A DNA stretch of 56,704 bases, filler included, from Dugesia japonica (Eukaryota), in NCBI GenBank assembly GCA_001938525.1. It is 4 parts of 4 records of this genome, joined end to end, with 100 filler letters (N's around TTAATTAATTAA, not from the genome) between each part and the next. Parts side by side here need not be neighbours in the genome. Positions count along the whole stretch, not along the records: positions 1 to 8,351 come from MQRL01494472.1; 3 more parts are not named here. The stretch is one strand, 5' to 3'. Shown piece after piece: positions 2,746 to 46,024 of this stretch; positions within the stretch are counted from its first letter, which is position 1, and every line of letters starts with the position of its first letter. Made by a program: the position numbers and the translations under genes. Under the pieces are notes generated by a model. The model was given only the letters and a program-made list of their open reading frames with translations, searched no databases and had not been told where the DNA came from.

Positions 2746-3561
2746 TTTAGCAAATCGATTGTTGGCATTTTTAGATGGAAATTATTTAAGGAAATTATTT
2801 GCATAAAGTAAATTTTATTTCTTTTAATATTAAATTATAAATTCAGTTGGAATAACTGGAATCGAATTTTTTTGTTTATAATAATAATTAATAATTTATT
2901 GAATTTTATAGTCTGTTAAAGACTAGATTTTACTATTAATAATTCATATTTTATTAGTCTGTTAAGGAATATTTCTTACTTTAAATCAAAAATGATAATT
3001 ATTTTGAAGTCTGTTATAGATTAGTTTGATTATTTTTTATATATTATTATTCCATTAATACTTTGTCAATAGTATGTTACCGGCTAGAAATCTAAAGATA
3101 ACCAAATATTAATTGAAGGATACTGTTCGACACATTTGTTAAACAGGTATCCTATATTGCCTAAAATCAATTTTAAAATTAGTAAGACCCAAAAATCTCG
3201 TCTTTGGTTTCTATGTCATAAAGGCGGTGTGCTGCAATTTGTTAGTGCCACTGTGCGAATATCTTTTAGGTCAGTAGTAATTACTGAGTTATCTGTCATT
3301 TAATTTATATAGGAGCAGGTTGCTTTAAAAAGGGTAACCCTAAAATTTGGATTTACTTTATGCTTTTTATTAAAATCAATTTGTAATTTTGTTTATAGTT
3401 AATAAAAGTTTATTAAAGACAAACGTGTTTTCTTAATTGATTTCTTTATTTATTATATTGTTATTTGTAATAAATAAAATAACTTTTTACCTACACGCGT
3501 ATTAATTAATTTTAAATTAGATAATTTCTTGTTAAATACCTGAGCCCACTAGGATCTAACA
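2746..3561 (+). repeat. 5' LTR (left boundary undefined, N gap)
   Basis: Ends ...GGATCTAACA immediately before the PBS; about 2900-3561 is homologous to 45380-46024; TATAAAT at 2836 and AATAAA at 3401. Confidence 0.8.
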
Positions 3562-3563
3562 TT

Positions 3564-3581
3564 TGGTGAGCCCGAAGTGAT
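3564..3581 (+). promoter_or_regulatory. primer binding site, tRNA-Trp type
   Basis: TGGTGAGCCCGAAGTGAT lies 2 nt after the LTR end and matches the canonical tRNA-Trp PBS TGGTGACCCCGACGTGAT at 16 of 18 positions. Confidence 0.8.
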
Positions 3582-3628
3582 AAAAAGTTATCCGTGAGCA
3601 AATAAATTTATCAAAATTTAACTTCAAA

Positions 3629-4867
3629 ATGGAAAAGTTGTTAACTATTTTAATTTACAGCAGTTTTTGGTTGAAATGAAAAACAAAAATATTTTAATCC
3701 AGTACCAGTTGTGAATAATTTTCTAATGATGATTAAAAAAACATTTAGCGGAAATCCGTGTGAATTTTCGGAATTCATGTCCAAGTATTATCAGTTAGCT
3801 CGTGCATATGGTATAAATGATGCTATAATGATACAGCGATTGCCAATATACTTGAAAGGTGTGGCAAGAGACATTTACAATGACGTAATGAACTCTATAG
3901 ATATCTAATCTAACGGAAGCATGGGATGCTTTGATGGTCGCGCTTACAAATAGGATATTACCAGGAGATACAGGATGTATCTTAAGATAACCATTCTATA
4001 ACTGACGTCAGAATGCCGATGAGCATGTCGGGAAATTTGCGTACAATTTATCTATATTAGCAGAACGAGCTCTTGGAAATAAAGCAGGGTGGAACGATCC
4101 CACCAAATTGATTCTTAAATACCAATTATGGTCAGGATTTAAACCAAGCATGATAAATGCCTTCAGTTTATATGTCGGAGAGTTATAAGAAACTCACTTA
4201 GAAGGCTGTGTTGATTGAAGCTAGTTTGGTTAACAGTGAAAGCAGTTTTATTGTTAATGCAGAGAAAACAAAAATAGTTGAATGTTTAAAGTGCCATAAA
4301 AAGGGACACATGTCCAAAGATTGCCAAAAGCAAAATAATAGTAATAACAATAATAGTAATAATAATAACATTAATAAGAGTACTCGATGTTCTAAATATG
4401 GTAGAAATAACCACACGGTAGAAAACTGCAGAGTAAGGAATTTACAAGGCGATAAATGCAAACGGAAAGGCCATGTAGCCGCAGTTTGCAGGACAAAAAT
4501 GGAAAACACTGTTGTTAGAGATCAAGTTAATTTCAATGGAAAAATTAAGTGTCAAAAATGGGAAAAATTTGGGTAGATGAAGCGTTCATGTCCCAAGAAG
4601 CAGAACAGAAATGGCCAAGCAGCCCAAAGTTCTCAATCAACAGTAAATATGATTAACTCAGGACAGAGTTTAACTTACTTGCAGCAGTTAGAATTGGCAA
4701 TTCAAGATGATAGGAATGGTCTCGCAAAATTGGATACTAATTGGATGCTAATTGTCATTACTAATCGCCCCAGGAAAGCAAATCTTGGGGAGACAGAGTT
4801 GGTGGTTACTGGAGAAGTAATGAGGCTAGAAAATACTGTTGAAAAACAGGATAATCAAAATAACTAA
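3629..4867 (+). pseudogene. gag: Gypsy-type gag with multiple CCHC zinc knuckles
   Basis: KTFSGNPCEFSEFMSKY..LPIYLKGVARDIY and RQNADEHVGKFAYNL (capsid-like); knuckles CLKCHKKGHMSKDC, CSKYGRNNHTVENC, (G)DKCKRKGHVAAVC, CQKWEKFG*MKRSC; stops and frameshifts. Confidence 0.9.
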
Positions 4868-5364
4868 GAATCAGATATTCTTGAAAGTTGTAAAAATATA
4901 ATTGAATTCAGAATGGATTGTCAAGATAAATTAAGGGAACAATTAGAAGAAATAGCTAGCAACGAACTGGCAAGGGAAAATTTAGAAAATGTAATGCAAA
5001 TAATATCTAAAGTCAGGCATGAGAAGGCCTTTTATAAAGAAATTGCTGAAATAAGCAGAAAAATTAGTAAAAAAATGTGGTGCGACTGGGATTTCAGAAA
5101 TGCTCAGTTGGAGATACACTTACCAAAAAGAGGCAGAGTACCTCTGGAATTAGATGTAAAAGAGCCAGTAGCTAAAATAATAGCTTGTCTGAAAAAGATC
5201 ATATACAGAGCATTTGATCTGTAATTGTATGGCAAAACATTAGACAGAGATGAATATATGTTGTTATGCGGAATATAAATGGAGATAAAACCGAGATACA
5301 AGCTAAAAAGATAGTAGTGTAAGTAGCTACTATTAGCCCGGATAGCATATTTGCTATAGAGCAT

Positions 5365-5829
5365 TTGGAATTGAAACAGTTACAAAACGCTCACTCCATT
5401 ATACAGAAATTAGGAAACGAGATATTTTCAGTTCCAAAATGGGATGAAAACATTAAAAGTATATTAAGTTGGATGTTTACGTTACATATTCTAACTGAAG
5501 TTTTAAAAGAGGTAATACCATTGATATTATCATTGGTATTACCATTGTTATTACCAAACAGTTATCAAAATGAAATTCGAATGTTAATTAGAAAAAATGG
5601 GGAAACCATAAGGCATGACTCGGTCAGACAGGCTCATTTTGTTGTTGGCATAAGAGTACTCGGTGAAGTGGTACAACAAATAAAGAGATATTCATGTTTC
5701 ACAAAGGTGTTAAAACTAAAAATCTATATCGGATTGACATATCCACAAACATGTTTAATAGTAATTTGGGGTAATCAAGTTGATGACGACGAATACTTAG
5801 TGGACGTTCACCAACTAAAACTACATTAG
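5365..5829 (+). pseudogene. probable integrase C-terminal (GPY/F-like) tail remnant
   Basis: FVVGIRVL...KLK..LTYP...VDVHQLKL resembles the FxVGDRVL...KL..GPY...VHVNRLK pattern that follows the Gypsy integrase core; the core itself is absent. Confidence 0.45.
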
Positions 5830-6745
5830 TCAATGTGTTGATAGTGGAGCCATCGAATGACCATAGGATTATGTTGCGATTGCCAGAAGTATCTGAGGAT
5901 TCACAGAATCAAGATTCACAAGTAATGCATGAAAAGGAAATGGATATTCCTCGACAAAATTAAGAAATCCTGGTGTATCTGGATGATCCAGAACTGGTTG
6001 AGTTACCTAATATACCACGAAAAATATTCTCTGAAGAAACAAGTAACTTCAGGAACGTACAAGATAACAATCTGAGAGTATCAACCTCCAGAGAACCAGC
6101 AGAGGAAAGACAACAAAGGGTTGAAAAGAGACGTAGACTGAAAAAGAATACTAATGTCAAGTCAGTGGACGAAATAGTTGCCAGAGAAATCCGAGCCAGG
6201 GCATTAAAAGCCATAATTATCGAAATTGATCAAGGAGATGTATGGAATGAATCAGTAATGTCAGACACATGCTATAAAATTCTGAAATTTATCAGAGTAT
6301 TAAAACCTGAGTTAAAATTGAAAAAGTTGGACGATGCGATCCAAGCTAATTAGCTTTGTCGCTAAAAACAATCATTAGAAAGTTACCAAGGAAATTGCCT
6401 GATGAAAATATTAGAAACACAATCCAAACGTTAGCTGCTCAAGGTATTAAAAATTGGCGTGCTTTAATGGCATTGACAATGATTAATCGAGATTCATTAT
6501 TAAGTTCAAATAATGATATTAGAAAATTAAAACAGAACATTGCAAAGCTATCAACAATTTTTGATAATGTATTTGCACAATGGACAGTTAATTCCAACGA
6601 GTGAAATGAACAAACATGCCAAAATGGCGAAGTACCAAGGTATGAAATTAATGTAGAAAATAACGAAATATCTGTCTTCGAATCAGCAAATAGAGTACCA
6701 TAGACAACAAGGAGAGGATTGGAGAAGCCTACTCAAATAATACTA

Positions 6746-8043
6746 ATGATATTTATAATGATGGGAATATTAAGGCAAACCAATGGGTTGATTGCTTATG
6801 ATTGTCATAATCTTAGCCCAGCAGGAATTTATTCGCTAGTAGATGCAAAGGAATGTAGATAGGCATATCCTACAAGATTACAGATTGTCCAACCAGCTAA
6901 ATATTATATTTATCAAGAAACTGAGTATTACNGCACTAAAGTGAGAGAGTGTTGAGTACAGAAAGTAGTATTTGAATAATGTTGTGGAGTTTATAGTTGT
7001 ACAAGAAAACGAAATAAAGGAGGAAAATACTCCTGTGGTATTAGTATCTACCGATCCTAAAGATGCAATAAGGTTCTTTAGAAAGGAGCCAAAATTAAAG
7101 TTTGCTCGTAGAGTATATGAAACTGACTATAAAGGGTTGTACTTAGCAAAACTAGTGTTCCAACCGCAAAGCAGATAAATGCTCAAGATATAAAAATGAC
7201 AAACTAATAAATAATAAACTCGATTATTTATATCATAATTTGCAATTACAGTTGCATGACATGTACAGCGAGGTTATCACAAATGACTTCAAACTAAATA
7301 CGGAAATTATAAAGAATAGATAAGTAATTTCAGTAGTATATCCAGATTTGGTCACTTCAATGTTGTTGGAAAAAGGCGTTTTCGGACGAATGATGGGCGA
7401 AGCCATTTATAGTTATCAATGTGCGCTTATAGAGGTGTTACCCACCAATTTTAATCAATGCACTGTGGAATTTCCAGTAAGCTTTGAGAATAAATTAAGA
7501 TTTATGAGTTCAATAACTTATATGTTATTAAGAGACAATGCAATATCTCAGGAAGCATGTATGTATTCCGGGAATATCACCATTATACAAGGTGAATGAC
7601 CATTGAATTTCATAACCTGGTCGTAAACCACCATCTAAACCAGTGCAGACATTAGATATTTCCAAATTAACGGATAATATGGAATTCAAGTCTCTTAATG
7701 ATTTGGCCAAACAATCCCGAAGATATTGAACAAGCAAGAAAATTGTTTGTCTTTCCACAGACAAGGGAACGAAGAATATCTGAAATAATTCAAACAGTGT
7801 ATCATCAAAATGAGATACGACCAAATTATAATTTGTTGTTTGGACCAGAACATTTCAAAGAAGTGGCTAGAAATGTATAAAATGTTTAAATATCATAACG
7901 ATGAAATTAAAAAGTTAAAAATGAAACACGGAACTGAAAGACATACAGTTGTGCGTTCCAAACCTAGTGAAAGGAATATCGACAGCGATAGTAACGATGA
8001 CGATTTTGACGATGATACTAATATATCTACTAAATATGATTAG
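6746..8043 (+). pseudogene. env: envelope-like glycoprotein, chuvirus (Jingchuvirales)-like class III fusogen, degraded
   Basis: Hydrophobic leader MIFIMMGILRQTNG then LIAYDC..YSLVDAKEC..QETEY.TKVREC; NKLDYLYHNLQLQLHDMY; GEAIYSYQC..EV...QCTVEFPV; EDIEQARKLFVFP. These blocks are collinear with conserved blocks of chuviral G proteins. No clear C-terminal transmembrane helix remains. Confidence 0.8.
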
Positions 8044-11315: not shown

Positions 11316-13590
11316 GGGTACTAATTATATGTTAAGTAAAATTAATGAAATGTTAAGTTACTCTAGTCGTACATTTAAAGTTAAAATAATGAGTGTATAG
11401 TAAAATTAGTAAATGTTAAGTTAAATTAATAAATCATAAGTTAAATTAATGAATGTTAAGTAAAATTAGTAAATGTTAAGTAATTAAATAAATTTGTTTA
11501 TTTAATAATAAAATATTTAAGTTCATTAATTTAAATAATTAAGTGAAGTAGTTTACTTGTTCAAGTATAAATATACGAAATTTAAATTTAAAGTTTAAAA
11601 TTTAATTATTTAAAATTACTTATAAAAATTAGTCAGTTACCAAGATACGAATCAAGCAATGACGAAATCGATTTTGTATCAACAAAACAATTTCAATATA
11701 ACAATGCAAATGAAGCTACAGCGTTTATCAAAAGTGAAAAAATATGGTCTTATTTCTTTACAAATAAAACAACAGATGCAATAAAAAAAAGCACGTGAAA
11801 CACAATGTAATGGTAGTAAAAAATATTGGTATACGAGATGACATGAAATTATTCATAAGCGAACAAATTAAGAGTGCTGTGAATAAACCAAAAACAATTT
11901 TATCAAACATTGAAAGAAATGGTTTGCAAGTTCAAAAAACAAGTCGACTTAATAATTATTTAAAGCAATATCGTGATAAAAACATTGATGTTTCAACTAT
12001 TAGTATGGGTGAATTAAGCCAATGGTGTGAATCAAAAAGTAATATACCTATAAATGATGATGAGGCATTTATTTTGTATCATGAAATTGGCGATAATGAT
12101 GAGAATGAAGATATAGAGAATATAGAAGATGATGATCAAAATTCCAAACAATATGTTCGTTTATGTATTAATACAAAACGTTTATTTTAAATTGCTTCAA
12201 TTTCAACAGCGGTTTACGCAGATATTACTAATAAATTGTATTGGCAGGGTTATCCTGTATTGATTACTGGTACAACTGATGCAGATAGAAAATTCCATCC
12301 ATTTTGTCTTACAGTGGGCAGTTGCGAAAAAGAAGCTGATTACAAATTTTTATTAGAAAGTGTTAAAAATGGTTTCAGAACAATAATAAAGAATTCAAAC
12401 CAAACGTCTTAATATCAGACGCATCAGATCCAATTACAAATAGTTTTAAGCAGTTTTTGGAAATAATTACAAACGTATTACGTGTTTGTCTCACGTTTAT
12501 AGAGCAGTAGATAATAATATGAAAAGTTACGTATCAAATAAAGAATCATCTATTAAAATAATGGACGATATAAGTCATCTACAGTTATGTCAGTCGCAAG
12601 AAATCTTCATGAAAGCATCTGAATTGTTCTTAATAAAATAGAAAGATGAAAGAAACTTTGTGATTACTTCAAAAACGAATGGTTAAACAAGCATCCAGGA
12701 TGGTATGAGGATTACTCACAAGAATATCTATCAACTAATAATGCACTCGAATCCAATAATAATGACATTAAACGAAGCAAAACTTTTCGTGAAATGTATC
12801 CATTATCAATAATTAAAGTTTTTGCACAAAAGATTGTAGAAGACTTGTCAAAAGAACAAGATTCAAATAAAATAAACGAAAAATTATTTTCAACAACTCC
12901 TATAACTATAAAATTGTGGACAGANGGAAATCAATGGATTAAATTGGATAAACAAGTATTATTTCATGAAAAGTCAAATCAATTGGAATATTACTTCATA
13001 TTATCAATTGAAAAGTCTGATATAGCGAAAACAAAATTGAACAATTATATTCGTTTGATGAAAAATATGAGATGGGATGATTTTGATCATTATGTTGATA
13101 CNNNNNNNNNNNNNNNNNNNNNNNNNNNNNNNNNNNNNNNNNNNNNNNNNNNNNNNNNNNNNNNNNNNNNNNNNNNNNNNNNNNNNNNNNNNNNNNNNNN
13201 NNNNNNNNNNNNNNNNNNNNNNNNNNNNNNNNNNNNNNNNNNNNNNNNNNNNNNNNNNNNNNNNNNNNNNNNNNNNNNNNNNNNNNNNNNNNNNNNNNCG
13301 TTGAAGACCATCGAAAGCAAAGAAGGCATTAGTTGTTCAATAAAAGCTAAAATTAACTCAAACATTTTTTTATTTATTTAAAAAAATTATTTTTTTACTT
13401 GTTTTTTGCTTTTTCTAATTAAATTTTATGATTAATTTACTTAATATTTTATTAGAAATACTTAATTTTGTATTAAAAATAACTTAAAGTTTAATTACTT
13501 TTACTTGACAAATAATTAAAATATACTTAAACTAAATTAATTTTTTTACTTAACATTTCATTAGTTTAACTTAACAAATAATAATAACTC
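11316..13590 (+). mobile_element. Mutator-like (MULE) DNA transposon with degraded transposase
   Basis: Imperfect long TIRs rich in AAATGTTAAGT; 9-bp TSD TTTTAAAAG at 11307-11315 and 13591-13599; MULE motifs VYADITNKLYWQGYPVLITGTTD, LISDASD, CLSHV, TNNALES. Confidence 0.92.
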
Positions 13591-14390: not shown

Positions 14391-17363
14391 CATAGACCTT
14401 CAACCTGGACTATATCGCCCACTAGTGGGCGTTTGAAAATAATAAGTGGGCAGTGTGTGGGCGCTCTATGTATATGTGGGCATTAGCGTTTTGAAAATTT
14501 ATCTACAGCCTATACCCATCTGTAACTAGTAACTAGCATATGTACTTGCATACAAACACTCACTCACATAAACAAAGCACCATTCACCAAATCCAACTAC
14601 CAATCAACTTAGTTGAGTTGTCCTAGTATATGTTACCAGCTGTAAATAGCATGTTACATGTATATGCACACACACTTGTAAAAGATTTATTACTAATAAT
14701 GCATGTAACACATACTCAAAGCGATTGGAGACAATTTACAGTACAGCGTTTTAGAGTAGTAATTCACTTACTCATCTTACAATGTACATATTGTGCAACT
14801 CCAATTTTAAAGTTGTCACAGTTTTTCTTTTGCTTTTATCTGTAATACGTGTATCAACAGCACACTGATGGTAGAAATAGTGCTTGTTTGTTGATTTAAA
14901 TACTTTACAAATAGATTAATTTGCATTTGATTATCTTCAGGATTGAATAAGGATTTGTCATCAAAGAAGAAGCGTTGCCCGCAGCATTCATTAGAGTATC
15001 TCTCATATGAATTTGTTAAAGCTCTTAATTATGAAGCTATCAAGCGTATTTAAATTTGATGCACTTTAAACAATAATGATAAGCCACTGGGTTATTTTAA
15101 ATTTCTGCATAAGCAATTCAAGGAACGACCAACAACTACCACAATTTTTAAAAAAGAAATGCAAAAGTAGTAGACTAACTGCTTGCATCCTACGATGTTT
15201 TAAATTCAAACCAAAGTGTGGTAAATTTCATAATAATGCTGAAGCACTCAGCTCTTCAAGATATTATTAGAACTGAAATGCACCAGGATTCAACCAAAGT
15301 GCTCAAAAGTTTTACCACTAAGTGACACATTATTAAAGACGTATTGATAAAATGGCAGTAGATATAGAAAGACAACTGGTTGCAAATTTGTGAGCCACTA
15401 AATTTTCATTGCCAATAAATGAATCTACGTTATCTGATAATGAAACTTCGTATATTTGCGATTGTCAAATACATTTCTTGATACAAAGCATGTTCCTTTT
15501 AACAACATTGTTGCCCAAGCAACTGATAGTACACCTGAGTTGGTTTGTCGCTATCGGAAATTCTTAGCATATTTAAAAACTTCAACTCCTAGCATATTTA
15601 TCATTCATTGTGTTGCAGACAGACAACACCTTGTAGCTAAGCAGCTAAGTAAGAATCTGCATTCTGCATTGGAAACTTTTATCTGTGTTTTAAAAAATAT
15701 CAATAGTAATTGTTTGAATGATCACCTCTTTTGTCAATAATGAAACACAATTATGAACAACATAATTGACTTGTTCTTCATACTGTAGTTTATGGGTTGT
15801 AAAAAGACAACTAATTGACAAGATTTACAGAATTATTTGACAGTATCCTATTATCTTTTGACTTAAATGGTGATATCAACCTTTGTGAGGAATTAAAAGC
15901 TGCAAAGAAAGATCCGTTCTATACCGCAGTAATATTTCAAAAGTTCAATGATATCAATTTGAAACTTCAAGGACAGCTAGCGACCTTAATCGATTCCATG
16001 AAGACAAGTGTCACATTATTTCAGAGGTTGGAATTGTACCGACAAAATATACTTGGGCAAGAATTTTATCAATTTCTAAAACAGGTCTCAGTTAGTAAAA
16101 AAAATCAATACTAATGAAAAATTTGGTAAGCATCTCAAATCCTTGGAAACTGGCATATCAACGCGCTTTTGCGAGTTGATGAAAATCCAGAAACGTCAAA
16201 CCTTCTCAGACACAGATTTATGCAGTCAGTGTCAATCATTATTCGAAATCATTTAATACAATACCAAACTAAAACTCTAGATGAGCTGGCAAAGCTAGCC
16301 GACTGTCATTTTGAAATATAGTCCCATTCTCTCAATTCTGTTTATCAAAAACCATGAAGAAGAGAATTCAACTCAAGAAGATCTTAATTCTAGTAAAGCA
16401 AAAAGAAATCAGTATAATGATAAAAATTTAAGAAAACTTTGTTTTTATCATAGAAAATTTAAAAGATATGCTGTTAAATGTCAACAACTATGCTCTTGGT
16501 CCACCAAAACCTATTTAGGGAAAGACAACCGACCTCAGTATAACCAACAGCTGAGATCCAAATCAAAACTAAGTCATCGCAATCTATAAACGCAATATTC
16601 ACAATTCCAGTTTTGTCAGAGAAGCTAAAATATGAATTTGTAGTAGACTCAGTTACTGACATTAGCATGGTTCCTATACAGCTATTCCAGCCAGATAATA
16701 TGAAAATCAGACATTCTTTAATTACGTTTAACAATAGAGAAATCGATGTTTTTAGTGAAAAAAAATTAAAAATCTTTATTCCAAGCATTCCTTGAACATT
16801 CACATGTTTATTCAAGGTTGTTGATGTACACCGACTAATCTTAAGATCCGATTTCATGTCAAATTTTATATTATTGGTAGATTGACACAAGTGCATTCTT
16901 AGGACACAGAAAAATAATATTAGTCCAGAAAATTAAACTTGTCTGGGAATAGAAACAAGTAAGGCAAAGAGTTCACAGATTAGGAGGAATCGTTCTCAGT
17001 CAAATAAAAAAAGAGTTCGACTCAGGATATTATTCAATCAAGTAACAGCGAATTGACTTCACCACTTATAATTGACAAAAATAAAGATGGAACTTTGCGT
17101 CCGTGTGGAGACTATTGCGTGTTTAATGCAATCACTAAACCAAACCGATACCCATAACCCAGAATAATCGACATTTTGAACAGAATTACAGGTTGTTCAT
17201 TTTTTTCTAACACTATTGTATTAGTCATATAGCATTCTGTATTGTTAGTAAACAATATTTGAATTTTAATTAGTTTTGTAAAGTTTAGGTGAGCAGTAGA
17301 CTTATTTATAGATGGGAATATAGCAAAAGTATGTGTTAGGCTAAAAAGAGTTGAAGGCAACTG
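14391..17363 (+). mobile_element. hAT (Buster/Charlie-like) transposon, degraded
   Basis: Degenerate TIRs CATAGACCTTCAAC / GTTGAAGGCAACTG; perfect 8-bp TSD ACTTAAAA (NNNTANNN) at 14383-14390 and 17364-17371; transposase motifs ATDSTPELV and IHCVADRQHLVAK. Confidence 0.9.
16190..17210 (+). pseudogene. Gypsy gag-protease-RT fragment inside the hAT element
   Basis: LDELAKLAD, LCFYHRKF..AVKCQQLC (gag end), FVVDSVTDISMVP (protease site), KDGTLRPCGDYCVFNAITKPNRYP (RT start); no LTRs visible. Confidence 0.85.
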
Positions 17364-18799: not shown

Positions 18800-21319
18800 C
18801 AAAAAATTTAAATCCGCTTTTAAAAACATGGTCTGTGCGAATAATAAATTTCTTCCCTAATAAATAATACTTGTATTTTTTCAAAAAGTAATTAACCGGC
18901 ATGAATTCTTCGTGATACAATACATTTTTTCTGCCTTCAAAAATTTCTGCGATTCATAGCATATTACTTTTTTTTCGTTGCATGTGACCCATACGCCATG
19001 ACTAGTTCTAAACCTCTTTTATCTATTTGCGATAGAACTGCTCCGATGGCATCAACACCCACTTTTATTTTTTGAACAAACATCCTTTTAATATCTGTAA
19101 AACTCAATATTTGTGCTTTTGTTAACGCTTTTTTCATTTCATTAAAAGCTTTATTACAACTTTCATACCACACATACAGCTATACCAAAAGACATTCTTG
19201 TAAAACAATGTCTCCTTTTTGTAGAAAATGCTGTTTTCATATGTGAATCTTTATGTAACAGAACTTGATAATATACATTACCCAAATCAATTGTACTCAA
19301 ATATCTTGCACTACTCCAATTGTCTAGTATTTCCTCTACATAGAGCATTGGAAATGCATGTCTTTCTGTGATTGCATTCAGTTTTCTAAAACCTAGACAT
19401 AATCTGTCATATTTTATTTCTTTTTTCAAACACATATTATCGGAGTGTTCAATTGTGAATTACACTCCATAATAATGCCGTTGTCAAACAAATCGTTGAT
19501 AGCTTCATCGATCTTATTTTCTAAATGCCAATATCCCAGTTATCTGGCATGAATATTCCTTTATGAATCATTATAACTTTCTACAAGTTCTCGTTTGGCT
19601 TGTAATCAATATTTTTATTGTTTTCTGTACTCTCTCTCTTCATCCGTTGTACTGAGTCTATAATTTGCTTTTATATTACAAAGATACATTAGATTATAAT
19701 TACATTTAGTCTCTCTCAGCAGTTGGAATCCAAACTGTTTCTGTAATTCTATTCTTCCTATTAGATCTGGATGTATTTGTTTCACAATAATGAATTTAAC
19801 TGTTTTTGCATTAATTCTCGAATTCTACTTATACTTTTATCGTACCCACTATTTTGAGCGGACTATTATTGGCAAATTTTAAATTGTCTTTGCTTTTTAA
19901 TATATTGATTTTTCATAATCTTTCCAATATTCTCAAACTCATCACATTAACTCTTGCTCCAGTGTCTGATAAGCAATCAACTTTTACGCATTGTATTTAA
20001 ACCGTTATATTTGGTCTATCTTGTATCTTGTCATAACTTATCTTTTGTCACTTTATTTCTTCTATTGTCAGAATTTCAGTGTCATCTTCTCCATTTATAC
20101 CATTGATCATCTCTGGCTGGCCTCTAATCAATTCTTTCTTTACAAACTTATGAACATTGTCTTTTACATCATTGTACTAATCTACTCGTTTATCTTCGTT
20201 TCTTTTATTTATATCATTATTTATTCTACTTATACTATAATTAAAAAATACTGCTATTTTTTGGGATACTTAATTCAACGCTCTGACAATCGCGACTGCG
20301 GTCAAAGCTTGGTCATTTAGGTATTCATCTTGATAAATATTTGATCTTTCATTACAATAGTGACTTTTTGTTTCTTTTCATACACAATATTTTCAATTTT
20401 CCTCAATCGAATTAACAGGACTTCATTCCTTTTTGTGAAATTATCCTTATTGTTTCAATAATATTTTTGTTTGGCATTTCCGAATAATTTTCTGTCTTGT
20501 TCACTTTTATTCTGATAACTAGAGTGTTTGTTCATATTAGTGTAACAGTCTTCTGTGTTGTGACCTTTCTTAGTGCATCTTGAACAACTAACTTTGGTAC
20601 AGTCTCTTCTTTAGTGTTGTTCAAATCAAGAAACATAACATTTTTTTCCTTATTGGAAAGATTCTGCTTACATGACCCATTTTTTACAGGTCCAACACGT
20701 TATTTCTTGTCTTTCGTTATTTTTGTTCTGTCGCATTCCTTCATTTTGACTCTTGTTGAAATTTGTTTGTACTGGACTTCGGCGAACAGCTTCTCTGTAG
20801 TTATGAACTACATTTATTTCTTTAGTATTTACTTCATCTTTATGTCTTCCCACTTTGTTATTGCTTTAAATGCATCTTCTACTTTTTTATTTTTTCTGAT
20901 CTTACCTTATGTTTAATTTTTCTGTCATTGCAGCTATTTATTATTAGCTCTTTTGTTAAGTCCTCTTTGTCCCATCTATGAGCCATTAACTTTTCTACCA
21001 ATCCTTCAACTTTCTTCTTATAGATTTTATTATGCTTTCCATTTCTTCGATAATTTAGAGCGTCCTCTATATCTTTAATTATTGTTGATGGTTTACAGAA
21101 AGCCTTTTTGAATCTTTCTTCAAATCCCAATGCTTTGTCTTCATTTTCATATATTTCACGCAGTTATTTATCTAGGAAATCAACTACAAACAAACTACAT
21201 TGGCCTTTCTTTGTTTCGGTTATATCGAAATATTTCCTTGTCTTCGACATCATGGCGCATTTTGAAACTTCCAAGGTTTATGGTTTTTTTTAGAAAATCC
21301 AATGATGTGTTGGTCGCCA
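18800..21319 (-). mobile_element. Ty3/Gypsy element internal region (PBS, gag, protease, RT, RNase H), degraded
   Basis: PBS-like TGGCGACCAACAC at 21307-21319; gag knuckles CWTCKK.GH and CSRCTKKGHNTEDC; protease LSDTGARVNV; RT RLCLGFRKLN..STIDLGNVYYQV; RNase H AIGAVLSQ..VMAYGS. Confidence 0.9.
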
Positions 21320-22512: not shown

Positions 22513-23063
22513 ATGGAGAAATTAAGAAATGGTGCAGATTATTAAATTGTTTGCCTAGTTTTAGCGAGAAAACTTTGTTTGTATGTCAATTATTGAATTC
22601 AAGTTTATTAAAGTCGAAATTTAGAAACATATACTGGCATAGGGGTGCAAATGAGGAGTATGGACTGACTAAATCTGAATTTTGTAATTTTAAAAAGAAA
22701 ATTATAATTGGTTTTGATAGAAATTGAAGCAAAAGGTTGAGACCAGGTGATGTTATTGTCGTTGATGATCTGGATCTAGAGGCGAATAAAGAAAGCGATT
22801 TCAATTATTTATTCACAAAGATATCTAGACATTGTAATGTTACTGTAATATTTATTACTCAAAATCTATTTCATCAAGGAGGTAGTCATATAACCCGCAA
22901 TTTAAACGTGAAATACTTGATTCTATTCCAAGATCCTAGGGATCAAACTGTTTTTGATTTTCTAGCAAGACAAGCATATCCAAATAACACACAATTTCTT
23001 ATTGATTCATTTCAAGAAAACCTCCATGCATATCTATTTTTTGACTTTACACAAAATAGGTAA
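22513..23063 (+). pseudogene. Polinton/Maverick A32-like packaging ATPase
   Basis: Degenerate Walker A PSFSEKT, Walker B VIVVDDL, LFTKISRHCNVTVIFITQNLF, N..YLILFQDPRD, LARQAYP, HAYLFFDF. Confidence 0.9.
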
Positions 23064-24930: not shown

Positions 24931-25082
24931 ATTTTAATGTCTTCATGCTATTCACGTTCAGATTATATGTCCATAACGGTACGTTAGCCAGGAAAGTGAC
25001 TCATAGTTTAATATTTCAACTACTATCATAATGTCATTCTTATCACTCTGAAGCGACAGACGTATCAGTGAATAACCGATAC

Positions 25083-25330
25083 CTGCATTTCTATATGCGA
25101 ATAAACATGTTGGAATATGAATATCTCAATATGTTTGATCTGCGTTGACATACGATGCCAACATTTGTGCAAAGATTTCGTCTAATCTTCCAATTAATCA
25201 AAATGTTTGTCGATGATATGTGGATGTATTCAACTTTAAAATTCGAAAATATACATTTATATCTTTTAGCAGGTTACTCATGAAATCTGTACCTCTATTT
25301 TTAAATAATTTCTTAGGTACTCAATACTTA
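25083..25330 (-). pseudogene. Gypsy integrase catalytic-core fragment
   Basis: VPKKLFKNRGTDFMSNLLKDI..KLNTSTYHRQT..FAQMLASYVNADQTY*DIHIPTCLFAYRNA. Confidence 0.85.
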
Positions 25331-26521
25331 AATATGATGTAAATAGAGTTACAGTAACAAATTTAATTCTATTTTGTCTCTTCAATCCTTCCATAATTTT
25401 GTTCATGAATATAAAATTGATCTAATTTGCTACTCTAACAAATTTTATTTTTGTACGATTCTTTTATTGAGGCTCAGTATTTTCTTATTTTTATTTATCT
25501 TGATTATTATCCATTGTAAGAATTACCAATAAGGTTTATTATTTATTGGGTTTTTATCAATTGTTACTTCTGCATTTCCATTTCTAAATCTGATTATTTA
25601 AACCTGATTTTAAATTATATTTAATTTAATAATATAAAATTTAATATATTTATAATTTTAATTTAATATTAATCGGATTTTAATCCCTTTTAATCTGATA
25701 TTATTTGATACAATTATTAAATCTTATCTTAATACATCCTTTTCATTTATCACTTTAAGCATGATTTACATATTTTAGTTTTATAATATTTCCAACAAAT
25801 TCTGAATTTAGATTTAACCATTAATTTTTTTTACATATATTTTGACATAGTTTAATTTACTTCCATGACTTCATTTCATTTGGAAATGGTCTGTGGTTTT
25901 TATTTTGAGAATTATAATCTTTTCCATTCACTAATTTTCAATGTGTTTAAATCGTAAAATATTTAACGGTATTTTCTAATTAGTGAACTAATGAGAAAAA
26001 TCGGATATGACAATCTTGCTACTTCTTATGCTATCATTAGTGGTATGGAGGTATGATTGATTTTATTTAAATATTAAGCAGTCATTTAAGTTTTAATGAA
26101 AATCAATAAAATATGAATTTTTTAAATATTCTAAACATTCAATTATATCAGAGCTTTATGCAGGAATATATTAAAGAATTTTCCAACAATATTTTTAAAA
26201 CTTTAAACGATCAAATATAAAACTTTTCGAAATTATACTAACATTTGAAAAATTTTATAATTCATTAAATAAATCAATGTCTTAACAAGTAATGTTTCCT
26301 CGTAGCTGCGCGGCCGCTCAAATTTCGGAAAACTTTCGCGCAAAAAATACCGCAAAAAAATACAGAATACAGTCTGATACAAATGTAATCTTAACTCATT
26401 TTAATATTTTATAATTACAATTATTGTGAGAATAATTGTTGGACTTAACCATTGATCGGATTTGAGATTTCNNNNNNNNNNNNNNNNNNNNNNNNNNNNN
26501 NNNNNNNNNNNNNNNNNNNNN

Positions 26522-28499: not shown

Positions 28500-30180
28500 A
28501 ATTTTACTGTCCCTTTACTATCAATCTTATTTATTATGCCATTAATTTCCTAATTATTTCTCTGCATTTCATATTTAATGATATCTTTATTTACAACTAA
28601 TAAACGAGTTTGGGCTTTTTTAGTTTTAGCATCAGCGTGTTCCAAATTAAATTGTTTACACAACTGCTTATTCAATCTTGATAAAGCATCTGCGTTAGAA
28701 TGTTTCTCTTCTTTTCTGTTCTCCAACCTGATATTTAAACTATTGAAAAAATTTATCTAATTTTGAAAATGAGCTGTAATTGGTTTTCTTGTTGTTAACA
28801 TAACAGTTATCACTTTATGGTCTGTTCGCAATACAAATTGTTTTTCGTATAAATAGTGCTTAAAGTGTTGTGTAAAGTGAAACACTGAAAGTAATTCTTT
28901 TCTCGTAATGCAGTATCCATTGACATACTTTTTGAACCGTAAGCAACGACTCTTTCTCTTCCAAAATGATCTTTATGGGACAATACAGAACCAATACTAT
29001 CAAAACTTGCGTCCGTATCCAAAATAAATTCACGACTGAAATAAGGGTTGCATAATATAGGAGCATTTGTCATTTTCTCTTTCAGTTTCTCAAATGCAAT
29101 TTCACATTCAGATGTGCAAATGATTTTTTTTCTTTCGTAATCAATAAAGATTCTAGTGGTTTTGTTAGTTGATAACATCCTTCAATGAATTTCCTATAGT
29201 AATTAGTTAGACCCAAGAAGCTTCTGAAGTGTTTAACGCAGCACGGTTTTTTAAATGTCTTTATAGATTTCACTTTATCTTTATCAGTCAATATTACATT
29301 AGTATTAATTACAAGACCTAAAGATTTTATTTCCAATACCAGACATTTGCATTTATCAGGATTAATTTGTAAACCAGATTTAGATATCCTTGTAAAAAGC
29401 TTGTCCAAAATTGAAATATGGTCATCAATTGTTTTCGAAAAAATAAAATATCATTTAGATACACCAAAATTTCTTTCCAATTCATGTCTCCTATAATAAT
29501 TGTCATTAACTTCTGAAATGTAGATGGAGCGGCGTCTATTCCAAACGGCATCTTATTAAAATAATATTGTCCATATTTTGTAGAGAATGCTGTTTTAATT
29601 TTTGATTCATACTACAATTCAACTTGATAACATGCATTTCCAAGATCTATTGATGAAAAATACTTAGCTCCATGTAGTGAATCTAACATTTTGTTCACAT
29701 TCGAATAGAGAACGCAGGTCTAACTGTATGCTTATTTAACAACCAAAATTTCAAGCACATTCTAATATCGGCTGAATTCTTCTTTTAAACACATACTATT
29801 GGAGAATTCCGTGGGGATTCATATTTTGATATTATTTTATTTTCATCCAAATTCTTAATAATTTCCTTAATTTGCATATCATAATATATTGGTTTTCGTC
29901 GATGTGGTACAACTTTTGGTTCACAATATGTCATAATCAAATACTTTAAAATAAAATTTTCTTTCCTATATCCGACTTTTTTGCCATAAAAATATTGCTA
30001 AATTTCATTATTGTTTCATATAATGGATGAATATTTCCTATAATGTTTTTTGATGTTAAAGCTTCATGTCTGTCAAAATCTGTTATTTCTTTCGTACATT
30101 TACCTTCTAAATTACATAAATCTAAAGTTAAAGAAGTATTTTCATTATTTTCAAAATTTAGATCTGTAACCATTACATCA
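28500..30180 (-). pseudogene. Gypsy pol remnant (RT, RNase H)
   Basis: FSSIDLGNA, MPFGIDAAPSTFQKLM, VYLNDILFF, RSFLGLTNYYRKFI, FILDTDASFDSIGSVLS, NADALSRL. Confidence 0.9.
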
Positions 30181-30199
30181 AATTCATTAATAAAATAAT

Positions 30200-31763
30200 T
30201 ATCAAAAAATATGTCCAGAAAATATCGGTTGTTTTTGGTAAAATTTACATTTTTCTGAATTTATCCTCGATTCTAATTCTCTGATGCTGTTAAAAACTTC
30301 TTTCAAAATTTCATTATGATCTTAGATCTTCCTTTCTTATACTAATATAATATCTAGATATACGATGACACCTTTAAAAATTAACCCTGTCAACATATCA
30401 TGCATCAACTTTTAAAACGTTGCTGGTGCCATTGCTAACACAAATAATTGAACCCAAATTGACTTTATTTGGTACAAAAACCGTAACATTTCTGGAGCTT
30501 TCTGCTAATTCTACTTGGTAGTAAGCTTGTCCTAGATCAAGTGAAGAAAATATTTTTCTACCTGTTAAGCAATCTAATAATACCATAATGTCTGGCATCG
30601 GAAATGAAACATTTTCGGTGATCATATTCAATTGTCGATATTCGACATACATTCTTATTGAACTATCTTTATTTTCAAATAATTACTAAGGGTGAATTCT
30701 TCGGGCTTTTATATTTTCTAATTACCTTAATACTTATTAAATTCTGTATCGTTTCGTCAATCTTCTTTTCCAAGTGCATCGGTTGTCTCTGGGATGTTGA
30801 ACAATTGGATCTCTCAATACTTTTATTTCGTGTACTACTTATTTTGCATGTTCGTTATCAAACTTAGATCTCATGAATATTTTACCAAACTTCAAAATTA
30901 GATCATTTAGACTTTTATTATTTGAATCTTCGAAGATGTTTATTGCATAATTCTTTTTATCCTTGTTTGGGCGTTTTTTCCAAAACATTTAGTTTCAATG
31001 TTATTAACTCCTGTCAGTTTTATTCCGAAACTTTTCATTGCCTTTATCCCACTAATAAATTGTGGTCATCAAGTGCATTTAACAAATTTTCTTAGTCTTT
31101 GACAAAAAGAAGTATGAATTTTTCTATTGTTACGCAGATAGCGTACTTTTTTTACGTAAATATATTTGGATAAAATTGATATCTCTTTAATTTAAATTTA
31201 TTTAAGCAAAGTTATACTCTTGTTTATGTTGATTAAAAAAATAATATATCACAATTATCAGTACAGTAACATTCACTAAGGATTTCTTTTTTATTAAAAC
31301 TTAACAAGGGATATTAAGTTTTTCTAACACAAATGTTTTGAGATATGGACTTGAAACCCTTACCATTAGTCTTACAATTAAAAGTTACCTATACATTGTC
31401 TAAAGTACTATGCTCGAAAAATGCTTCGTTTCGACTCCATAGATGTGTCCGCACTGCCGATACCAGCTATTTTCTTTCCATGTAATAAACATCTCACTTT
31501 AAATTATGAGGATTACTTGAGCTCATGTAAAATGAAGAGAGCTAAAATGTTGAAGAAACTATATCATTTGGATCCGTTCATGGTAGCAATGGAAGAAATA
31601 ACAAACAATGAAATATTGTTTTACAGACACCAACTTGAGAATATCCTTCAAGCTGGGCTTCATGCTCTTATGGAAATTCAATTCTTAGATTCTTCAATGA
31701 TTTAACTTTATTCATATAGTCCTCTTCATATTCTTTGTTATTGCGCAAACCGATATCCAATTC
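30200..31763 (-). pseudogene. additional Gypsy pol fragments (second RT copy and downstream pol piece)
   Basis: RMYVEYRQLN..FPMPDI..FSSLDLGQAYYQV and IVYLDII are a second RT N-terminal half in tandem with the first; 31400-31763 looks like a pre-integrase region (weaker). Confidence 0.75.
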
Positions 31764-40935: not shown

Positions 40936-40974
<39 letters not shown>

Positions 40975-41637
40975 TTTATTATTATTATTCTGTATTTATA
41001 AATCTATATTTCATTTAAATTATTTTTAATCCGTTGAAAAATAGTTGAAAATAATTCTTGTTTGTTTAACGGAAAATGAAGTCAATTCATAATAATTATA
41101 TACAAATATAAATAATTTGAATGTTAATTAATCCACCAATGAGATTCATTATAACTTTTAAATTGCAGTCAAACATTTGATTTTAAATTTTAGGTTTATT
41201 CTGTTATTTGGATTCAATATTTTAGTTNNNNNNNNNNNNNACATTGAAATGCATTGTCAAATTATTTCTCTAAATGTATAAATAAACTGTTATATTGAAT
41301 AAATATGGAATTTATAGAAAGCACTAAACGGCTACTTATTCGTTAATATTCAAAAATAAATTACAATTAAATCACAAACGATAATTAATCAATGCAAATG
41401 AATTATTAAAATAACTATTCAAAAGATTTTTAATAAACATCCTGTAGAATTTTCAAGTTGATTTTAAATACAATGCTATAATAATTTATTATTAAAAATT
41501 GATTTATTATCTATTGTATTTTTATCGAATTATTAATCAATTGTAATTATTTCAAAAGTAATTGTTGAGCTTAACCATTGATTTAACNNNNNNNNNNNNN
41601 NNNNNNNNNNNNNNNNNNNNNNNNNNNNNNNNNNNNN

Positions 41638-41676
<39 letters not shown>

Positions 41677-42289
41677 TTTATTATTATTATTCTGTATTTA
41701 TAAATCTATATTTCATTTAAATTATTTTTAATCCGTTGAAAAATAGTTGAAAATAATTCTTGTTTGTTTAACGGAAAATGAAGTCAATTCATAATAATTA
41801 TATACAAATATAAATAATTTGAATGTTAATTAATCCACCAATGAGATTCATTATAACTTTTAAATTGCAGTCAAACATTTGATTTTAAATTTTAGGTTTA
41901 TTCTGTTATTTGGATTCAATATTTTAGTTNNNNNNNNNNNNNNNNNNNNNNNNNNNNNNNNNNNNNNNNNNNNNNNNNNNNNNNNNNNNNNNNNNNNNNN
42001 NNNNNNNNNNNNNNNNNNNNNNNNNNNNNNNNNNNNNNNNNNNNNNNNNNNNNNNNNNNNNNNNNNNNNNNNNNNNNNNNNNNNNNNNNNNNNNNNNNNN
42101 NNNNNNNNNNNNNNNNNNNNNNNNNNNNNNNNNNNNNNNNNNNNNNNNNNNNNNNNAAGTTGATTTTAAATACAATGCTATAATAATTTATTATTAAAAA
42201 TTGATTTATTATCTTTTGTATTTTTATCGAATTATTAATCAATTGTAATTATTTCAAAAGTAATTGTTGAGCTTAACCATTGATTTAAC
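40930..42289. repeat. near-identical local duplications around N gaps
   Basis: About 40930-41227 recurs at 41638-41929, and about 41456-41587 recurs at 42157-42288; each copy is bounded by Ns, so probably unmerged contig overlaps. Confidence 0.8.
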
Positions 42290-45036: not shown

Positions 45037-46024
45037 TATTAAACATATTAGGTTAAAATCATCGCTTATATATTTATTGGATTTCGTATAAAGATTAATA
45101 AACAGAACTCGCGTAAAAAATCGTTGATTTGCCTTTGTGAAATCCCAAAGACATCTCAAAAATATGAAATATGGACCCAAACCAAAGGAGTGCGAGTCTG
45201 TACTCAGATTTTGAGTCAACGGCTCCATTACGAAGATCTGGATTTTTACGACACCAGATTAAAATTCTTTGCGGAGTTTTGCCAGACTTAATTTAATATA
45301 TAGTTCGAACCCCACTAGATTTAATCCTATAAATAATCAACTCACCTAGGGTAAAACCCCAACAATAATTTCAATTTAATTTATAGTCTGTTAAAGACTA
45401 GTTTTTATTTATTTGTCAAATTATTTGAAGTCTGTTAAAGACTTGTTAATAAAATTTTGGAAAGTCTGTCATAGACTAGTTTTGGTTAATTTATTTTATA
45501 TAATATTATTTCATTGATATTATTTTTATTAGTCAGTTATTGACTAGCAAAGAAGTATTAATTAAAAATATTTAAAAAATAGATACTGTTAGACATAATT
45601 GTTAGCAGGTATCATGTGTTTTCCTAAAATCAATATTAAAATTAACGAGACCCAAAAATCTCGTTTCTTGTGTCCATTGTTTAAAGGGGGTGTCCTGGAA
45701 TTTGCTAGTACCACTGTGCGTAAAATCTTTAGGTTAGTAGTTTTCACTGAGCTATTTCAATTAAATTATATAGGAACACGTTGCTTGAAAAAGGTATCCC
45801 TGAAATTCGGATTTACTTTATATTTTACTTGTTCAATTTTTTATAAAATTTTTTAGTCTTAATAAAAGTTTATTATAAAATAAACGTGTGATCTTAATAG
45901 ATTTATCTTTATTTATTAAATAATTATTTGTAAATAAAGTAACCTTGCACCTACACGCATATTTAATTTATATTTGGAGTCAGATAAATTCTTATTAGGT
46001 ACCTGAGCCCACTAAGATCTAACA
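45037..46024 (+). repeat. LTR (solo or 3') related to the env-carrying element LTR
   Basis: 45380-46024 is collinear with 2900-3561 and ends TGAGCCCACTAAGATCTAACA with no PBS after it; TATAAAT at 45328 and AATAAA at 45861. Confidence 0.85.

Follow-up and report, generated by a model that had tools for sequence, protein, structure and literature searches.

What kind of element is a string of short inverted repeats in a retrotransposon, where in the element does it lie, and does it act as RNA or as DNA? These questions are raised by a stretch of 56,704 nt from Dugesia japonica (the window in the following), which contains two decayed copies of an env-carrying retrotransposon, termed copy A and copy B. 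Cis signals of Burro-like elements, in which env stands before pol, are little on record, and a short repeated motif would provide a handle on their transcription, export or packaging.

Two arrays of 17-nt units

Eight units of 17 nt, four per copy, were confirmed at all coordinates given by an earlier note on this DNA:

A1, 2909 to 2925, plus strand: perfect 6-bp stem with 5-nt loop; -5.4 kcal/mol
A2, 2955 to 2971, plus strand: degenerate, one mismatch and one G-U pair; no fold alone (0 kcal/mol)
A3, 3007 to 3023, plus strand: degenerate, outer mismatch and one G-U pair; -2.1 kcal/mol
A4, 3070 to 3086, plus strand: degenerate, two mismatches and one G-U pair; no fold alone (0 kcal/mol)
B1, 45384 to 45400, plus strand: same sequence as A1
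B2, 45428 to 45444, plus strand: outer pair changed from U-A to A-U
B3, 45462 to 45478, plus strand: outer mismatch; other genomic copies have a different loop
B4, 45530 to 45546, plus strand: inner pair changed from U-A to A-U

Instead of the two degenerate units formerly counted in copy A, three of the four (A2, A3 and A4) are imperfect and only A1 is perfect. The units of copy B, described as cleaner, indeed have intact cores throughout, but the outer position of B3 is unpaired. Starts of neighbouring units are 46, 52 and 63 nt apart in copy A and 44, 34 and 68 nt in copy B, and the units occupy the first third of the block common to both copies. The exact pattern AGTC-N7-GACT is found five times in the window, where 0.29 occurrences are expected from composition, and all five lie inside the two arrays. 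With up to three mismatches to the consensus there are 22 matches versus 8.4 +/- 2.8 in shuffled sequences, and none of 100 shuffles reaches 22. The array is real and no plain tandem repeat. The tetramer GTCT, present in six of the eight units with an opposing AGAC in most, is presumably the Smad-binding one.

A comparison with contigs covered 40 of 107 variant rows, 23 of 471 loose ends and 16 of 5228 pieces. In contigs of two runs, other genomic copies carry extra units (backward joints 45445>45408, 45452>45407 and 45404>45368), one of them having a C-to-T change by which a U-G pair results.

Conservation of units, loops and spacers

Within one copy the units are 76% (A) and 80% (B) alike, whereas their 12-nt flanks are 35-50% alike, compared with 38-40% by chance from composition. 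The spacing of the half-sites is constant at 7 nt, and the AGTC/GACT core is unchanged in all four units of copy B. The loop, asymmetric and non-palindromic, is conserved as strongly as the stem or the whole unit, with 25/30 and 23/30 identical pairwise positions by hand count for the two copies. The 5-nt loop is conserved, as the earlier note held, but it is not fixed: at position 45469, in the loop of B3, most of the depth in two DNA contig sets shows A, not T. Between the copies, 57 of 68 unit columns are identical (84%) with no gaps, versus 90 of 117 ungapped spacer columns (77%), with 38 gap columns in 155.

Because the units and their asymmetric loops stay alike while the spacers drifted, a selected multivalent protein-binding array is plausible, and judged by its sequence the array is probably under selection as a cis element. 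In a neutral scenario, one small palindrome would have been copied by reverse-transcriptase slippage or strand transfer, quasi-palindrome correction keeping the arms symmetric and slippage reshuffling the spacers. The small difference in divergence between units and spacers, the decay of three A units and the marginal covariation (see below) all suit such a by-product. As the four units are collinear in two copies that are only 74% alike, the flanks between units are near chance and the units are not, and the B cores are all intact, we regard it as quite unlikely. Copy A is heavily decayed, with 15 in-frame stops in 993 codons examined, which makes its broken units a poor guide to the active ancestor.

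Pairing and folding

The eight units comprise 48 pair cells, of which 40 are Watson-Crick, three G-U and five unpaired; these 43 pairing cells compare with 25-44% when partners are slid. Two-sided changes occur in only two of the six pairs, the outer pair in B2 and the inner pair in B4, each in one unit and each a terminal A-U pair. None is seen at the four core stem pairs in eight units. The covariation score was reached by 24 of 500 shuffles, a shuffle count and not a probability. The description of the pairing as covarying is therefore an overstatement, the covariation being weak. Single transitions in the stem give G-U on the plus strand in four of four or four of five cases, depending on the reading of A4.

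Single units fold weakly (0 to -5.4 kcal/mol), and two units tested on the minus strand fold about equally well. Taken whole, region B outdoes its shuffled versions in folding (z -2.59), and region A does not (z +0.92). At the gathering score, Rfam gave no match in the window, and ARAGORN found nothing. Judged from these data, the sequence evidence for a conserved RNA fold of the array is thin.

Order of the LTR signals

The array belongs to a block shared by both copies, with the following features:

2890 to 3561, plus strand: shared block of copy A (array and LTR core), 74% identity over 697 columns; ends TCTAACA
45364 to 46024, plus strand: shared block of copy B; contig depth past its end about single-copy
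3124 to 3561, plus strand: 438-bp LTR core of copy A, starts TGTTCGA; the whole LTR if the short-LTR reading holds
45587 to 46024, plus strand: 438-bp LTR core of copy B, with a perfect and unique 7-nt terminal inverted repeat TGTTAGA...TCTAACA
3117 to 3153 (A) and 45582 to 45613 (B), plus strand: larger predicted hairpin straddling the candidate LTR start; -14.4 and -10.4 kcal/mol
3306 to 3311 (A) and 45767 to 45772 (B), plus strand: TATA-like box TATATA, downstream of the array
3401 to 3406 (A) and 45861 to 45866 (B), plus strand: AATAAA, 95 and 94 nt after the TATA, followed by a GT-rich stretch
3564 to 3581, plus strand: primer binding site (PBS) of 18 nt, two bases after the LTR end of copy A
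45110 to 45365, plus strand: separate very high-copy repeat, ends CCCAACA and holds a TATA-like site at 45328

In both copies TATATA, AATAAA, the GT-rich stretch and the TCTAACA end follow 3' of the array in this order. A PBS, which we take to be tRNA-Trp-like, comes after copy A, and none was found after the end of the copy B block (46024). For animal Metaviridae LTRs, the consulted part of PMC3601003 reports the same order of TATA, AATAAA and GT-rich stretch as well as the termini TGTTRNR...YNYAACA, which the LTR-core ends match perfectly over 7 nt in copy B and with one mismatch in copy A.

The array had been placed between a TATA box and the AATAAA, thus probably in the R region. This placement is not supported by the order of signals, since the upstream TATA at 45328 lies in the separate repeat and the shared TATA at 3306/45767 lies downstream. 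As the LTR signals of both copies are downstream of the array, an action at the 5' end, in the manner of TAR or of an anti-termination signal, becomes less likely, and the proposal of a multivalent protein-binding array stays plausible, with units and loops outlasting the spacers.

The repeat bordering array B bears on the same point. Its summed contig depth is 3e4 to 3.3e5, where the array has 270-490 and single-copy pieces have about 10, making it about 100 times more abundant than the array. Its CCCAACA end at 45365 is the exact point where likeness to copy A begins. No second copy of it occurs in the window, and it is not common to copy A. At the border, one contig per DNA set carries a further unit in its place. 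The repeat is probably the 3' end of another LTR that inserted into copy B.

A transcript start near 2870-2890/45360, with the array in a long R, as would follow from the earlier model, would agree with the several hairpins held by the block. Against it stand the location of B's upstream TATA inside this far more abundant repeat with an LTR-like end at the similarity border, the contigs in which a further unit replaces the repeat, the shared TATA in its usual order before AATAAA, and a resulting R of more than 500 nt. We therefore consider a TAR-like array improbable, and R is the least likely of three positions for the array.

By summed contig depth, the repeat has on the order of 10,000 or more copies, and it shows three conserved islands. 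The region 45100-45300 has a predicted fold of -45.6 kcal/mol, a value without shuffle control. In RNA run X9, most of 374 reads fall on the repeat, about 70% of them in one orientation.

U3 of a long LTR or 3' UTR beside a short one

Two positions are the most likely for the array, namely the U3 of a long LTR and the 3' UTR next to one of 438 bp. A long LTR, with the array in U3 and copy A as an ordinary 5' LTR, comes close to an even chance. An upstream start of the LTR with a target-site duplication could not be established, since gaps or other repeats interrupt both copies, and no such duplication was found around copy B.

A short LTR, with the array in the 3' UTR, is a possibility that we rate somewhat lower. 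It is favoured by the perfect inverted repeat of copy B and by the equal length of 438 bp that both copies give, from TGTTAGA (B) or TGTTCGA (A). Against it, a 7-nt terminal match is estimated to arise by chance in roughly 8% of like blocks, and copy A would have to be a tandem arrangement. Positions 3124/45587 are not clearly marked as an LTR start, because neither block contains a purine run of at least 9 nt as a polypurine tract (PPT); the 15 nt before them hold 9 (before 3124) and 10 purines (before 45587). All four contig pieces overlapping 45587, among those listed, run upstream of it. The larger hairpin lies across the candidate start in both copies, and none of 200 (A) and one of 200 (B) shuffles fold as well. 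An LTR of certainly only 438 bp was accordingly downgraded for the missing PPT, the tandem arrangement and this hairpin.

Contig depth jumps 15-35-fold near 45578-45589, but swings equally inside the LTR core. Read depth was rejected as a test of the LTR start for this reason and since a proxy based on copy A failed to predict depth.

Few RNA reads bear on the block. The check for a transcript start gave no piles of read starts or ends. Run X9 has no reads over 45397-45476 and 6-7 reads from a diverged copy over 45557-45676, and run X12 has none in the block, both runs being read to about a quarter. No RNA match is listed for 2890-6900.

Several minor observations concern the LTR core. The larger hairpin (3117-3153 / 45582-45613) pairs GATAC with GTATC and is stronger than any array unit. 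Further small hairpins at 3186-3208, 3271-3287 and 3332-3342 and at the aligned B positions are common to both cores. Several unit loops fit TGTTRNR too: five unit centres (2914, 2960, 3012, 45389 and 45433) read this consensus, which is that of integrase attachment, and are similar to CTGTTAGAC where the candidate LTR starts. By this likeness, the array units might derive from that junction. The motif TGAGCCC occurs in U5 (3540-3546) and, in the same orientation, in the PBS 27 nt later (3567-3573), and is kept in the U5 of copy B; the primer tRNA could pair at both sites.

The element and its relatives

The coding remnants are those of a broken relative of Ty3/gypsy elements whose gene order appears Burro-like. 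Copy A contains:

3711 to 4594, plus strand: broken gag with CCHC zinc knuckles; matches ORFs of relatives L002 and L003, E 2.5e-10 to 4e-3
5557 to 5805, plus strand: segment between gag and env kept in relatives; 29-34% identity, E 1e-4 to 1e-3
6710 to 7877, plus strand: broken Monjiviricetes-type fusion glycoprotein (env) in several frames; PF24664, E 7.5e-15 and 2.3e-6

The env begins about 3.1 kb after the PBS. Likeness to relatives ends at 7877, and no pol follows env in copy A. Unassigned coding stretches stand between gag and env; the segment 5557 to 5805 has no Pfam or ESM Atlas match, and a basic stretch lies near 6110-6150. The best of 123 protein matches include long polyproteins with env before the protease; 15 were scanned, and five of these also have RT and RNase H after env. 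In three metagenome loci a single ORF holds, in this order, env, protease, RT, RNase H and integrase, preceded by gag in one of the loci, and the RT-RH-IN order of the relatives is that of gypsy. A flatworm host would be in keeping with such a gene order and with the low G+C. BCL2-like and SUMO-like domains found no Pfam, BLAST or ESM Atlas support in the window, and a weak Bcl-2 match occurs only in relative P0002.

For the giant planarian gypsy elements Burro and GYPSM1, a class of over 30 kb, gag followed by a mononegavirus-like env before pol is described in the consulted part of PMC6431247, which makes no mention of a hairpin array. The present element is similar in having a Gag with CCHC knuckles, followed by a mononegavirus-like env that precedes the protease in the relatives' polyproteins. 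Copy A differs in being far more compact, truncated, broken and without pol, and in showing no confirmed BCL2-like or SUMO-like domain. Burro1 of S. mediterranea is abundant and tissue-specifically PIWI-silenced, as stated in the portion seen of PMC8532177.

Three distant relatives show no such array at their available 3' ends, which stop short of any LTR. An env-alignment scan confirmed 5 of 535 metagenome stretches, 0 of 108 viral and 0 of 76 prokaryote ones, and the five show neither an LTR-length repeat nor a match to the window's LTR. A word-indexed search with an env piece yielded 0 of 164 candidates. Exact DNA patterns of the LTR end had no match in metagenome, prokaryote-genome or viral collections, nor had a two-unit pattern in viral contigs. 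Unit A1 occurs in four viral contigs, which was treated as chance, as none has a second unit nearby.

In relatives L001 (10617-12104) and L002 (11375-13470), accessory ORFs follow pol; one has an RNase T-family exonuclease match (E 1.4e-5) and two have no Pfam match. Several relatives possess two protease-like domains after env.

RNA hairpins or DNA sites

Units, conservation, element class and signal order being observed, we infer a transcript start, folding in cells, a bound protein and a function as follows. The array would be a cis element kept by selection in a Burro-like Ty3/gypsy retroelement and situated upstream of the TATA that belongs to the LTR itself, and in U3 or 3' UTR alike it would sit near the 3' end of the genomic RNA, not the 5' end. 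There the RNA would most likely fold into at least four small hairpins, each with a 6-bp stem and a pentaloop, joined by unstructured spacers rich in A/U. Each hairpin could be bound through stem and loop by one protein, encoded by the element or the host, and the unspliced RNA might in this way be controlled in its export, stability or packaging.

Our tentative preference, held at somewhat less than even confidence, is for RNA hairpins that bind protein near the genomic RNA's 3' end. They best suit the combination of a dyad whose asymmetric loop is conserved with gap-free units, spacers lacking structure, a slight bias toward G-U and unit distances that share no helical period. A conserved non-palindromic loop would not be needed by the free spacer of a dimer's DNA site. 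The pairing of most cells, the G-U bias of the transitions, the extra units in other copies, the shared downstream TATA, AATAAA and GT-rich stretch and the reads over 45557-45676 point the same way. Against RNA hairpins speak the two terminal double changes only, the weak folds with the minus strand alike, the unremarkable folding of region A, a unit identity slightly above that of ungapped spacers, the lack of reads over 45397-45476, and the want of an array at the available 3' ends of the three relatives.

Nearly as good is a reading of the units as DNA dyad sites in U3, i.e. as an enhancer box, palindromic and repeated, that lies about 220-400 bp upstream of the TATA and is bound by a dimeric host factor, which by itself we consider rather unlikely. 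The core fixed in copy B, the constant half-site spacing, the differing number of units between copies, the want of a clear PPT at 3124/45587 and copy A as an ordinary 5' LTR followed by its PBS would all be natural for such a box, for which the repeated motifs of Sireviruses, as far as seen in PMC2829016 and PMC4728375, are a precedent. It explains less well that the asymmetric loop is as conserved as the arms, that B4 alters both GTCT and AGAC yet still pairs, and that the spacings share no common helical phase; nor is an upstream LTR start with a target-site duplication established.

Going further with the RNA hairpins, a string of identical pentaloop hairpins at the RNA's 3' end could conceivably serve a protein encoded by the element, such as Gag or one containing the basic stretch near 6110-6150, as a multivalent landing pad and work as a Rev/RRE-like export or packaging switch. 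This is a speculative extension, to which we give little weight. If true, regulation by a landing pad of repeated boxB-sized units would be a design new to retroviral-like elements of invertebrates.

Comparison with known systems

MPMV's constitutive transport element (CTE) is a 3' RNA export element of simple retroviruses, formed by one long stem-loop with internal loops. The array is predicted to resemble it as a structured cis element near the 3' end of unspliced genomic RNA and differs in that its hairpins are small and stand apart from one another in a row. Basic peptides bind the small stem-loops of HIV TAR and lambdoid boxB, whose loops are sequence-specific and which act near the start of the nascent transcript. 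The predicted stem-loop units are similarly small, but the array is repeated, and the likely promoter lies downstream of it.

In Sirevirus LTRs, palindromic boxes that vary in number and can form hairpins are arrayed upstream of the TATA, and the junction of the 3' LTR is described as having an inverted repeat around it (PMC2829016 and PMC4728375, in the parts consulted). The kind of feature is thus already known, dyad arrays upstream of an LTR TATA being described for Sireviruses (PMC2829016, part seen). Common to both are several dyad boxes with intervening bases, their variable number and their position upstream of the LTR TATA; the hairpin across the candidate LTR start likewise recalls the Sirevirus inverted repeat around the PPT/LTR junction. 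Sireviruses, however, are Ty1/copia elements of plants, and their GC-rich CGG-CCG boxes form CpG islands; the present element is a Ty3/gypsy one from an animal, and its array has the core AGTC-N7-GACT, a loop that is conserved and spacers rich in A/T. The array resembles the Sirevirus motifs in layout and, given its AGTC/GACT core and gypsy order, is not a member of them. If it is merely a U3 repeat, it is one more case of the plant-Sirevirus pattern.

The literature searched, with the consulted parts of PMC8532177, PMC13238120, PMC10309623 and PMC10084718, gave no account of the motif for Burro-like elements; supplementary repeat libraries may already annotate the LTR.

Other features of the window

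Upstream of copy A, a broken gag-like fragment with zinc-knuckle-like motifs (1540-2090) belongs to another element. Decayed gypsy pol fragments lie at 17026-17211, 18825-19524, 25003-25341 and 28661-30979. By eye, a possible Polinton-type ATPase fragment (22728-23063) and possible DNA-transposase fragments (11768-13381) were noted; no host gene was recognised in the window. A near-identical duplication with an offset of 702 bp (40936-41587 and 41638-42289), located beside N gaps, is probably an assembly artefact. Several N gaps contain the TTAATTAATTAA linker.
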